A stretch of 64,000 bases of DNA from Mobula birostris (taxonomy: Eukaryota): NCBI RefSeq assembly GCF_030028105.1, contig NC_092378.1, positions 19,958,715-20,022,714 of the forward strand, read 5' to 3'. Below the pieces are notes generated by a model. That model did not search any database. It saw only the letters and a program-made list of their open reading frames with translations, and was not told the DNA's origin. Positions 19,121 through 24,540 of this stretch are shown one piece after another; the stretch's first letter is position 1, and every line of letters starts with the position of its first letter. The position numbers and the translations under genes are program-made.

Positions 19121-20200
19121 GAAGACCAATTTTGACCTGTATCTGTATTGTACGGCTCTATGACTCTCCATAGTAGAGACCATTGTTAAGATTGCAACTG
19201 AAGTATTTCTTACAGGTACGATCTCCTTAAGTAAGTGAGGATACAGTTGCAATGCAGAAAGTGCAATGAATAATCAGCAATTGAAAGGTTTGTTTCATGA
19301 TGAGAGATTAAGCCGACTGGTTCTAGGCTGTCTTGCCCTGAGGGAAAAAAAAATGGCTATCTCTTTGAAAACTTAGAAAAAAAAGTTTCCTATTTCCCCT
19401 CATTGGAATGTCTTGAGTTAGAGATCACAGTCTCAAAATAAAGATCAGAAAAAAAACATACTTAACCAATTAGTCAGTGATTCTTTAGAAGGCTATACTC
19501 AGACTTCATAACTGAGTAAAGACCATAAGACCATAAGATATACGAGCAGAATTAGGCCATTAGGCCCATTGAGTCTGCTCTGCCATTTCATCATGGCTGA
19601 TCCGATTTTCCTCTCAGCCCCAATTTCCTGCCTTCTCTCCGTATCCATTCATGCCCTGACCAATCAACCTCTGCCTTAAATATACATAAAGACTTGGCCA
19701 CCACAGCTGCCTGTGACAAAGAATTCCACACATTCACCACTCTCTGGCTAAAGAAATCCCTCTTCATCTCCATTCTAAACAGACACCCCTCTATTCTGAG
19801 GCTGCATCCTCTGTCTTAGACTCTCCTACCATATGGACAGTGCAGCGCGGCAGATTTAAAAGGGCAGAAATCCTGCTTCGGGTTTGATTCGAAGAAGGAG
19901 TCTGAGAGTCTGAGTGGGAGTGCCGAGAAAGACATTTTTGAAATTTTCGTTATTTTTTTTTCTCTCCAACGGCGTTCTGAGAGGCGGGACTGCGCAGGCG
20001 TGTGACGTCGGGCAGTGCAGCGTGGCAGATTTAAAAGGAACAGAGCCTCATAGAGTGGGCAGCGTAGTTTGTGGGCGGCAGAGTGAGCCGGGAGCAGAGT
20101 GAAGACTTAAGGGCTTTGGCTCAACGGGCTTAGGCGGAAACGGGCGAGGCGAGGAAGGTTTGGCATTCATTTTCTGTTGTCATTGGAGGAGAGGGGCAGT

Positions 20201-21138
20201 ATGAGTGTGAGGGCAGTTTGCTGTTCTCGGTGTCGGATGTGGGAGGCCCTGGAGTCTCCAAGCCTCCCGGATGTCTACATCTGCGCCAAGTGCATCGAGA
20301 TACAGCTCCTAAGGGACCGCGTTACGGAACTGGAGCTGCAGCTCGATGACCTTCGTCTGGTCAGGGAGAGTGAGGAGTTGATAGAGAGGAGTTGCAGGCA
20401 GGTGGTCACGCCGGGGCCACGGGAGGCAGACAAGTGGGTCACGGTTAGGAGAGGGAAAGGGAAGAGTCAGGTAATAGGGAGTACCCCGGTGGCTGTGCCC
20501 CTTAACAATAGGTACTCCTGTTTGAGTACTGTTGGGGGGGACAGCTTACCCGGGGGGGAGCGACAGTGGCCGTGCCTCCGGCACAGAGTCTGGCCCTGTA
20601 GCTCAGAAGGGTAGGGCAAGGAAGAGGAGGGCAGATGTGATAGGGGACTCGATAGTAAGGGGGTCAGATAGGCGATTCTGTGGACGCAGTCCAGAGACCC
20701 GGATGGTAGTTTGCCTCCCTGGTGCCAGGGTCCGGGATATTTCTGATCATGTCCAAGATATCCTGAAGTGGGAGGGTGAGGAGCCAGAGGTCGTGGTACA
20801 TAAAGGTACCAATGACATAGGTAGGAAAAGGGATGAGGTCCTGAAAGGAGAATATAGGGAGCTAGGAAGGGAGTTGAGAAAAAAGGACCGCAAAGGTAGT
20901 AATCTCGGGATTACTGCCTGTGCCACGCAACAGTGAAAGTAGGAATGCAATGAGGTGGAGGATAAATGCGTGGCTGAGGAATTGGAGCAGGGGGCAGGGA
21001 TTCAAGTTTTTGGATCATTGGGACCTCTTTTGGCGCGGGCGTGACCTGTACAAAAAGGACGGGTTACACTTGAATCCTAGGGGAACCAATATCCTGGCAG
21101 GGAGATTAGCGAAGGCTACTGAGGTGACTTTAAACTAG
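20201..21138 (+). pseudogene. CR1 ORF1 (~311 aa after repair): CxxC..CxxC zinc finger, leucine-zipper coil, SGNH/GDSL esterase
   Basis: Motifs CSRC..CAKC, GDSI, GTND, DGLH are spread over ORF-track pieces 20177..20614, 20532..20936 and 20920..21138. These join via two +1 insertions, placed at G7 (20552-20558) and A6 (20879-20884). Confidence 0.9.
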
Positions 21139-24100
21139 AATGGTTGGGGGGTGGGAATCAAATTAAAGAGGCTAGGCGTGAGGAGGTTAGTTCACAACAA
21201 GGGGATGGGAACCAGTGCAGAGAGACAGAGGGGTGTAAAGTGAGGGTAGAAGCAAAAAGTACTAAGGAGAAAAGTGAAAGTGGCAGGCCGACAAATCCAG
21301 GGCAAGCATTAAAAAGGGTCACTTTTCAACATAATTGTATAAGGGCTAAGAGAGTTGTAAAAGAGCGCCTGAAGGCTTTGTGTGTCAATGCAAGGAGCAT
21401 TCGTAATAAGGTGGATGAATTGAAAGTGCAGATTGTTATTAATGATTATGATATAGTTGGGATCACAGAGACATGGCTCCAGGGTGACCAAGGATGGGAG
21501 CTCAATGTTCAGGGATATTCAATATTCAGGAGGGATAGACATGAAGGAAGGGGAGGTGTGGTGGCGTTGCTGGTTAAGGAAGAGATTAACGCAATAGAAA
21601 GGAAGGACATAAGCCGGGAAGATGTGGAATCGATATGGGTAGAGCTGCGTAACACTAAGGGGCAGAAGACACTGGTGGGAGTTGTGTACAGGCCACCTAA
21701 CAGTAGTAGTGAGGTCGGAGATGGTATTAAACAGGAAATTAGAAATGTATGCAATAAAGGAACAGCAGTTATAATGGATGACTTCAATCTACATGTAGAT
21801 TGGGTGAACCAAATTGGTAAAGGTGCTGAGGAAGAGGATTTCTTGGAATGTATGCGGGATGGTTTTTTGAACCAACATGTCAAGGAACCAACTAGAGAGC
21901 AGGCTATTCTGGACTGGGTTTTGAGCAATGAGGAAGGGTTAATTAACAATCTTGCCGTGAGAGGCCCCTTGGGTAAGAGTGACCATAATATGGTGGAATT
22001 CTTCATTAAGATGGAGAGCGACATAGTTAATTCAGAAACAAAGGTTCTGAACTTAAAGAGGGGTAACTTTGAAGGTATGAGACGTGAATTAGCTAAGATA
22101 GACTGGCAAATGACACTTAAAGGATTGACGGTGGATATGCAATGGCAAGCATTTAAAGGTTGCATGGATGAACTACAACAATTGTTCATCCCAGTTTGGC
22201 AAAAGAATAAATCAAGGAAGGTAGTGCACCCGTGGCTGACAAGAGAAATTAGGGATAGTATCAATTCCAAAGAAGAAGCATACAAATTAGCCAGAGAAAG
22301 TGGCTCACCTGAGGACTGGGAGAAATTCAGAGTTCAGCAGAGGAGGACAAAGGGCTTAATTAGGAAGGGGAAAAAATATTATGAGAGAAAACTGGCAGGA
22401 AACATAAAAACTGACTGTAAAAGCTTTTATAGATATGTAAAAAGGAAAAGACTGGTAAAGACAAATGTAGGTCCCCTACATACAGAAACAGGTGAATTGA
22501 TTATGGGGAGCAAGGACATGGCAGACCAATTGAATAATTACTTTGGTTCTGTCTTCACTAAGGAGGACATAAATAATCTTCCAGAAATAGTAGGGGACAG
22601 AGGGTCCAGTGAGATGGAGGAACTGAGCGAAATACATGTTAGTAGGGAAGTGGTGTTAGGTAAATTGAAGGGATTGAAAACAGATAAATCCCCAGGGCCA
22701 GATGGTCTGCATCCTAGAGTGCTTAAGGAAGTAGCCCAAGGAATAGTGGATGCATTAGTGATAATTTTTCAAAACTCGTTAGTTTCTGGACTAGTTCCTG
22801 AGGATTGGAGGGTGGCTAATGTAACCCCACTTTTTAAAAAAGGAGGGAGAGAGAAACCAGGGAATTATAGACCGGTTAGCCTAACGTAGGTGGTGGGGAA
22901 ACTGCTGGAGTCAGTTATCAAAGATGTGATAACAGCACATTTGGAAAGCGGTGAAATCATCAGACAAAGTCAGCATGGATTTGTGAAAGGAAGATCATGT
23001 CTGACGAATCTCATAGAATTTTTTGAGGATGTAACTAGTAGAGTGGATAGGGGAGAACCAGTGGATGTGGTATATTTGGATTTTCAAAAGGCTTTTGACA
23101 AGGTCCCACACAGGAGATTAGTGTGCAAACTTGAAGCACACGGTATTGGGGGTAAGGTATTGATGTGGATGGAGAATTGGTTAGCAGACAGGAAGCAAAG
23201 AGTGGGAATAAACGGGGCCTTTTCAGAATGGCAGGCGGTGACTAGTGGGGTACCGCAAGGCTCAGTGCTGGGACCCCAGTTGTTTACAATATATATTAAT
23301 GACTTGGATGAGGGAATTAAATGCAGCATCTCCAAGTTTGCGGATGACACGAAGCTGGGTGGCAGTGTTAGCTGTGAGGAGGATGCTAAGAGGATGCAGA
23401 GTGACTTGGATAGGTTGGGTGAGTGGGCAAATTCATGGCAGATGCAATTTAATGTGGATAAATGTGAAGTTATCCACTTTGGTGGCAAAAACAGGAAAAC
23501 AGATTATTATCTGAATGGTGGCCGATTAGGAAAAGGGGAGGTGCAACGAGACCTGGGTGTCATTATACACCAGTCATTGAAAGTGGGCATGCAGGTACAG
23601 CAGGCGGTGAAAAAGGCGAATGGTATGCTGGCATTTATAGCGAGAGGATTCGAGTACAGGAGCAGGGAGGTACTACTGCAGTTGTGCAAGGCCTTGGTGA
23701 GACCACACCTGGAGTATTGTGTGCAGTTTTGGTCCCCTAATCTGAGGAAAGACATCCTTGCCATAGAGGGAGTACAAAGAAGGTTCACCAGATTGATTCC
23801 TGGGATGGCAGGACTTTCATATGAAGAAAGACTGGATGGACTGGGCTTGTACTCGTTGGAATTTAGAAGATTGAGGGGGGATCTGATTGAAACGTATAAA
23901 ATCCTAAAGGGATTGGACAGGCTAGATGCAGGAAGATTGTTCCCGACGTTGGGGAAGTCCAGAACAAGGGGCCACAGTTTGAGGATAAAGGGGAAGCCTT
24001 TTAGGACCGAGATTAGGAAAAACTTCTTCACACAGAGAGTGGTGAATCTGTGGAATTCTCTGCCACAGGAAACAGTTGAGGCCAGTTCATTGGCTATATC

Positions 24101-24176
24101 TAAGAGGGAGTTAGATATGGCCCTTGTGGCTACGGGGATCAGGGGGTATGGAGGGAAGGCTGGGGCAGGGTTCTGA
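21123..24176 (+). pseudogene. CR1 ORF2: apurinic-like endonuclease plus reverse transcriptase, with one in-frame TAG at 22887-22889
   Basis: Motifs NARS, ITETW, YRPP, SDH (APE) and YLDFQKAFDKV, GVPQGSVLGP, KFADD (RT). The TAG replaces Ser in SLT(S)VVGK. Confidence 0.95.
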
Positions 24177-24540
24177 GTTGGATGATCAGCCATGATCATA
24201 ATAAATGGCGGTGCAGGCTCGAAGGGCCGAATGGCCTACTTCTGCACCTATTTTCTATGTTTCTATTTAACATTCTCTCCACATCCACTCTATTAAGGCC
24301 TTTCATCATTTGATAGATTACAATGAGTTCACTCCTCATTCTTCTGAATTCTGGTAAATACAGGCCCAGAGCTATCAAACACTCTTCATATGACAAGGCA
24401 TTCAATTCTGGAATCATTTTTGTGAATGTCCTTTGAACCCTCTCCAGTTTGAGCACATCCTTTCTAAGATAAGAGGCCCCAAACTGCTCACAATACTCCA
24501 AGACAGGCATCACCAGTGCTTTATAAAGTCTTAACATTAC

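Follow-up and report, generated by a model that had tools for sequence, protein, structure and literature searches.

The junction between ORF1 and ORF2 of a CR1-type LINE, found in a 64,000-nucleotide stretch of the Mobula birostris genome (hereafter the window), has the appearance of a real, deeply conserved recoding signal. Based upon its sequence, we consider it very probable that the element employs −1 programmed ribosomal frameshifting (PRF) at the heptamer U_UUA_AAC to produce an ORF1–ORF2 fusion protein of about 1,324 aa. The features which point to such a signal are a heptamer phased in the ORF1 frame, a stop codon adjacent to it, a −1 frame which is shut upstream, fixed synonymous bases, and a G run at a fixed distance. 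Weighing against it are the absence of a canonical stem-loop, the AUGs found in sister lineages, and the 31 of 98 protein representatives which end in no compatible dipeptide. Furthermore, the precedent of L1 at the mRNA level favors AUG-independent initiation instead (PMC5009743, partial text).

In the model proposed here a fraction of the ribosomes would slip back by one base at the heptamer and then read ORF2. Presumably tRNA-Leu and tRNA-Asn would slip in tandem, from UUA AAC to UUU AAA, with reading continuing via CUA to yield the trans-frame junction peptide T-L-N-L-E-W-L. The majority of ribosomes would terminate at the ORF1 stop, leaving ORF1p in excess. The G run might serve as the stimulator, most likely as the docking site of a protein immediately outside the entry channel of the ribosome. 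Recoding of this type had been proposed in the initial annotation, and the comparisons described below are in accord with it, in that heptamer-breaking codons were not encountered in the lineage representatives scored and the register is kept.

Table 1. Features of the CR1 element and its ORF1/ORF2 junction (window coordinates)
Feature	Position	Strand	Remarks
CR1-type LINE, full-length but decayed	19835..24268 (end approximate)	+	shared 5' start; 3' end by reading the sequence
ORF1: CX2CX16CX2C zinc finger and SGNH/GDSL esterase	20201..21138	+	
TGA closing the ORF2 (−1) frame, 6 nt 5' of the heptamer	21120..21122	+	
ORF2, −1 frame: 86-codon linker, APE endonuclease, reverse transcriptase	21123..24176	+	
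Slippery heptamer T_TTA_AAC, in ORF1-frame phase	21129..21135	+	
ORF1 stop directly 3' of the heptamer	21136..21138	+	TAG/TAA in 18/18 lineage representatives
GGGGG, candidate stimulator	21146..21150	+	+11..+15 past the heptamer, 10-nt spacer, no conserved fold

From its architecture and its ORF1 homologues, rather than from an RT tree, the element is classed as a CR1-clade LINE. It consists of a 5' UTR with an internal duplication, ORF1, ORF2 and a short 3' UTR. The 5' boundary at 19835 falls on the same starting base in 4/29 other copies, and the 3' terminus (near 24250–24268) is a short tandem repeat without poly-A. The direct duplication within the 5' UTR (19835–20040) was likewise seen in four other copies (L019, L020, L025 and L030).

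Of the domains named in the initial annotation, the zinc finger and esterase belong to ORF1, and the APE endonuclease and RT to ORF2. The zinc finger is N-terminal and its Cys residues are near-invariant in a 37-sequence ORF1 alignment. The last piece of ORF1 matches Pfam Lipase_GDSL_2 (E 1.7e-07, just under the curated cut-off), while the nearest named ORF1 protein comes from a ray and is 93% identical. ORF2, a frame of 1,017 codons, matches PF14529, PF03372 and PF00078 (endonuclease and RT). In an intact natural copy (L003) ORF1p has 311 aa, and 311 + 1,013 gives the 1,324 aa of the predicted fusion, in agreement with the earlier estimate of about 1,320 aa. With breaks near 20549 and 20879 disrupting its ORF1, and a TAG (22887–22889) its ORF2, the window copy could not itself make the fusion and carries only the signal.

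Re-reading of the sequence bore out the earlier description of the junction: ORF1 terminates in ACT TTA AAC TAG with T_TTA_AAC phased in its frame, and the −1 frame, shut by the TGA at 21120–21122, is open from 21123 onward, such that the two reading frames overlap by 16 nt. The first in-frame ATG of ORF2 lies, as had been claimed, inside the endonuclease. It is codon 218 (21774), two residues ahead of the Asp of the catalytic motif (DDFN here, GDFN in most relatives). An out-of-frame ATG (21140, + strand) occurs one base past the ORF1 stop and opens an eight-codon ORF (21140–21166) in the +1 frame; it is found in 31/31 copies of the family-A group and at the same position in no other group.

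Conservation of the heptamer was examined at two depths. From 1,959 candidates in the 4.01 Gb genome 40 close copies were scored and 30 fetched, the window copy being counted among the 30, and TTTAAAC TAG is kept in 28/30. At 98% identity, these copies reveal no more than the form of the junction in the source element of their family. The divergent set consisted of further families of the same genome, obtained with ORF1 proteins of other species as queries, together with 43 metagenome loci (obtained with the 37-sequence alignment). The junction was located without recourse to the heptamer, as the first in-frame stop past an ORF1 anchor which omitted the last eight residues. Of 149 loci, 125 had the anchor and DNA beyond it, and in 105 of these a stop fell no more than 18 nt from its expected position. 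TTTAAAC was present at 84/105 of these cleanly located junctions. Among the other 41 loci, ten have the heptamer nearby, either out of the anchor's frame or followed by a mutated stop, and the remainder are mostly old decayed copies or one-base variants. A query ending in Gly-Asn fetched ten extra family-B loci, all of which (10/10) possess the heptamer. In family E (L134–L147) a poly-G tract of variable length lies just 5' of the heptamer, adding Gly codons and often disrupting the ORF1 frame.

Synonymous sites were compared in 18 chosen representatives: six from the ray's own genome, six bird-like (52–66% to a Calypte anna protein), one weakly squamate-like (35%) and five not assignable to a host (no more than 37% to each of 16 named vertebrate proteins). 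Excluded were L092 and L118 (heptamer present, though not in the frame of the anchor), L105 (decayed site), L062, L089 and L130 (no clean junction) and L129 (which shares a family with L095). DNA identity of the ORF1 tails between deep groups is about 30–55%. The last Leu is TTA in all 17 lineages with an open tail, versus 15/125 Leu codons (12%) elsewhere in the tails, and the last Asn is AAC in the same 17, versus 18/57 (32%), counts in which shared ancestry and the hand choice of representatives mean that the trials are not independent. Other invariant tail residues have mixed codons, and neighboring third positions are plainly variable among lineages. The base preceding TTA AAC is T in 17/18, and the codon to which it belongs is one of eight different codons; the exception, L093, has G and thus G_UUA_AAC. 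Synonymous Leu-Asn codons which break the heptamer, proposed beforehand as a test, occurred in none of the 17 lineage representatives scored. The retention in close copies and the fixed synonymous positions across divergent lineages confirm that the conservation of the heptamer exceeds chance.

The last heptamer base could change silently in either frame and yet is C in 18/18, and in most lineages the −1 frame is shut 3–42 nt upstream; dual protein coding is therefore not the explanation. One might also suppose that the motif has a role outside of translation, as a splice acceptor or a site of RNA processing or transcriptional slippage, or that the protein is constrained to end in Leu-Asn. Asn311 is indeed invariant in the 37-sequence alignment, and the TAG/G of the bird-like loci resembles a 3' splice site. 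Constraint on the protein is unable to fix synonymous bases, the AG of an acceptor is lost in the 5/18 lineages which have TAA, and runs of three bases are short for polymerase slippage. We regard these explanations together as highly improbable. Four contig runs, which we guess to derive from RNA, gave neither a GT-AG joint nor a letter change at the junction among the matches listed, an observation to which we attach no weight.

The stop codon is TAG in 13 of the lineages and TAA in five, though a TGA would be silent in the −1 frame. This choice, along with the location of the stop immediately after the heptamer and of the G run 7 nt past the stop, which is a canonical spacer distance, would suit a variant mechanism leading to the same fusion. 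In it termination is slow, the stop occupies the A site and the P-site tRNA-Asn alone slips from AAC to AAA. A single-tRNA slippage has no need of the opening triplet of the heptamer, whose bases are also fixed (T in 17, 18 and 18 of 18) and seem to change together by clade. We accordingly give this variant very little credence beside tandem slippage.

Evidence on how the heptamer may change comes from the C-termini of ORF1 proteins. Among 120 homologues examined, 80 have a DGLH motif near the end and 73 of these finish in Leu-Asn; the sources of proteins with this ending include rays, sharks, the coelacanth, frogs, turtles, squamates and a bird. A sister clade terminates in Gly-Asn in 13/27. 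When representatives were taken at 50% identity, 98/150 had the motif near the end, with LN in 54, GN in 10, KN in three and other endings in 31, the search profile being biased to the terminal Asn though not to a preceding Gly or Lys. Over all proteins compared, the residue before LN has a codon unable to end in T in only 2/129 cases, and the residue before GN has a codon unable to end in G in 0/19, it being Gln in 15; the Fisher P computed from these proteins is inflated by their kinship, and we place no reliance on it. These endings fit a switch among U_UUA_AAC, G_GGA_AAC and A_AAA_AAC, the latter two being deduced from protein. All three are listed with the most slippery heptamers on mammalian ribosomes (PMC5009743, partial text). 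DNA of the GN clade was sought in the ray's own genome, which yielded only matches of about 36% to LN families, and in viral and prokaryote collections, which yielded none.

Three database proteins (P0036, P0055 and P0009) derive from one-base-changed copies and run through the junction, reading F-K-L in the first two; this shows indirectly that further ray or shark genomes contain the heptamer. Of three longer annotated proteins, none is a full ORF1–RT fusion as judged by length or Pfam listing, a result which counts as weak evidence.

In the open copies the offset of ORF2 from ORF1, for which the initial annotation had proposed a test, is kept: the −1 register holds over linkers of 39, 44, 50, 53, 57–67, 72, 86 and 110 codons. 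Over 339 linker codons the three frames contain 0, 21 and 41 stops. The zero of the −1 frame is circular, the copies having been picked as open, and the counts establish only the closure of the remaining two. The claim that no AUG precedes the endonuclease, the contrary of which the initial annotation would have taken as a refutation, stood for family A (23/28 open copies, out of 31 group members with L063 and L088 included), family F (1/1) and three deep loci. It failed for family B (codon 39 in 8/8 open copies of 30), family E (codon 19 in 6/6 of 11), family C (3/3 of 13, at varying positions), the bird-like loci (codon 5 or 23 in 4/4 open loci) and L093 (codon 29), while many older copies are not open as far as the endonuclease. 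In the lineages which have such an AUG a separate ORF2 start is possible. Since the AUG is absent or lies anywhere from codon 5 to codon 39 according to lineage, and the −1 frame runs on from the heptamer, these AUGs look incidental.

The main alternative to frameshifting is that ribosomes terminate and then re-initiate, either without an AUG, as has been proposed for L1 of mammals, or from an AUG particular to the lineage, to make a separate ORF2 protein, with the heptamer, stop and G run serving to hold the ribosome. It can draw on the in-frame AUGs just listed and on the stop which always adjoins the heptamer, and it has models in AUG-independent initiation, considered for L1 ORF2 (PMC5009743, partial text), and in the UAAUG stop-start of SART1 (PMC3708506, partial text). 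CR1 resembles mammalian L1 and silkworm SART1 in having a bicistronic LINE RNA from which less ORF2 product is expected, made from downstream of ORF1. It differs from these re-initiating elements in its conserved slippery heptamer and −1 overlap, and a positionally conserved start near the ORF1 stop, of the type used by SART1, was not found. Re-initiation would not lead one to expect a heptamer of the form X_XXY_YYZ, a −1 register held from that point on, or endings which switch among LN, GN and KN in step with the residue before them, nor does an AUG start account for the lineages which have no AUG. We consider it unlikely.

The G-rich tract noted initially does begin 6 nt past the heptamer (21142), but what is conserved is the GGGGG at +11..+15, and no conserved fold accompanies it. 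G occupies these five positions in 17, 18, 17, 18 and 16 of the 18 lineages; all five are G in 68/84 copies and at least four in 80/84, and in L093 the run is displaced by 3 nt. Since two of these positions, +11 and +14, fall on the third base of −1-frame codons, the constraint appears to act at the level of RNA. The next 80 nt, a C-poor region, folded no better than shuffled sequences in the 18 lineages (z −1.4 to +2.2), and the structure 5–9 nt downstream of a canonical −1 PRF site was not seen. Nor was a distant pairing partner of the G run common to the lineages, the best duplexes with the 87–3,620 nt of downstream sequence available differing in place from one lineage to the next. Rfam detected no frameshift family at the junction and gave one weak, unrelated match. 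A G-quadruplex common to all was ruled out by inspection, several lineages having only one or two G tracts; a two-tier quadruplex is possible in families A and B.

By analogy, a protein binding site is our lead candidate for the function of the G run. PRRSV nsp2 −1/−2 PRF depends on a linear motif 10 nt downstream which is bound by nsp1beta/PCBP, with no stimulatory RNA structure (PMC7618472, partial text). CR1 likewise has a linear conserved motif at a spacer of about 10 nt and no fold, but its motif is G-rich rather than C-rich, its heptamer is of the canonical −1 type, and the CR1 case is known from sequence alone. A broader proposition is that all esterase-type CR1 LINEs, in vertebrates and beyond, make their RT as an ORF1–ORF2 fusion by a −1 frameshift stimulated by a protein (a host G-run binder or ORF1p) on GGGGG 10 nt downstream, with no RNA fold, which would be protein-controlled frameshifting native to animal genomes. 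In this general form we hold it to be a tentative idea, and on balance a somewhat doubtful one.

Among characterized systems, the coronavirus ORF1a/1b and retroviral gag-pol signals share with CR1 the class and phase of the heptamer. In those viruses a stem-loop or pseudoknot is located 5–9 nt downstream (the canonical spacer; PMC7618472, partial text), whereas CR1, a LINE, has a linear G run after a 10-nt spacer. Viral −1 PRF maintains an excess of structural protein over fused polymerase (PMC5009743 and PMC7618472, partial texts). Frameshifting also has a precedent within LINEs: TRE5-A and TRE3-A of Dictyostelium, which are APE-type non-LTR elements of the L1 clade, have two overlapping ORFs as does CR1, and a figure legend states that a −1 frameshift is required for ORF2 (PMC5911963, partial text). 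They belong to another clade and another host.

In the literature searched we found no claim of −1 frameshifting in CR1, although the CR1 papers of 1997 or the Repbase notes may mention the overlap or the site. "Chicken repeat 1" combined with "ribosomal frameshift" and ORF1 matched no paper. CR1 as a whole word is absent from the first 300,000 of the 449,034 characters of PMC5009743. In the portions available, a 2026 survey of vertebrate CR1 (PMC13343379) contained no match for frameshift, overlap, start codon or translation, PMC3905857 none for frameshift, and PMC2734521 none for "frameshift", with "frame-shift" used for mutations only; parts of PMC11835228, PMC4255032 and PMC5405496 were also within the scope of the search. 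Thus the mechanism is known, while its use by CR1 and an unstructured stimulator candidate were not found described in this literature.

CR1 has been described as dominating the retrotransposons of most vertebrate species (PMC13343379, partial text), and the translation of LINE ORF2 from bicistronic RNA has been described as unclear (PMC3708506, partial text). Given a site of seven bases and a motif of five, a single reporter could address this question. Were frameshifting to be correct, CR1 ORF2p would be an esterase–endonuclease–RT fusion, ORF2 models beginning at the first Met would be truncated, host factors which inhibit frameshifting could restrict CR1, and CR1 would supply a frameshift stimulator without an RNA fold.

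Several further occurrences of CR1 sequence were noted. On the − strand of the window (about 2565–2574) there is another junction, reading TTTAAAC TAA, which is followed by a G-rich tail and has no upstream match to ORF1; about 70 nt on it meets the middle of the RT, this being an internally deleted, 5'-truncated CR1 copy. Approximately ten more 5'-truncated LINE ORF2 fragments are scattered over 1347–52987 on both strands, nearly all on the − strand. An "SGNH/GDSL hydrolase [Pseudomonas aeruginosa]" (P0022) is 59% identical to the window's CR1 ORF1p and terminates in Leu-Asn; it is likely to be host DNA inside a bacterial record. A Protopolystoma xenopodis protein (P0082) is similarly frog-like in appearance. 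CR1 ORF1 sequence is also contained in annotated isoforms of the host genes RPS24, TMEM204, NCOA5, HAO2 and VSIG10L2 (P0024, P0063, P0120, P0147 and P0148), reflecting either gene-model artefacts or exonisation.
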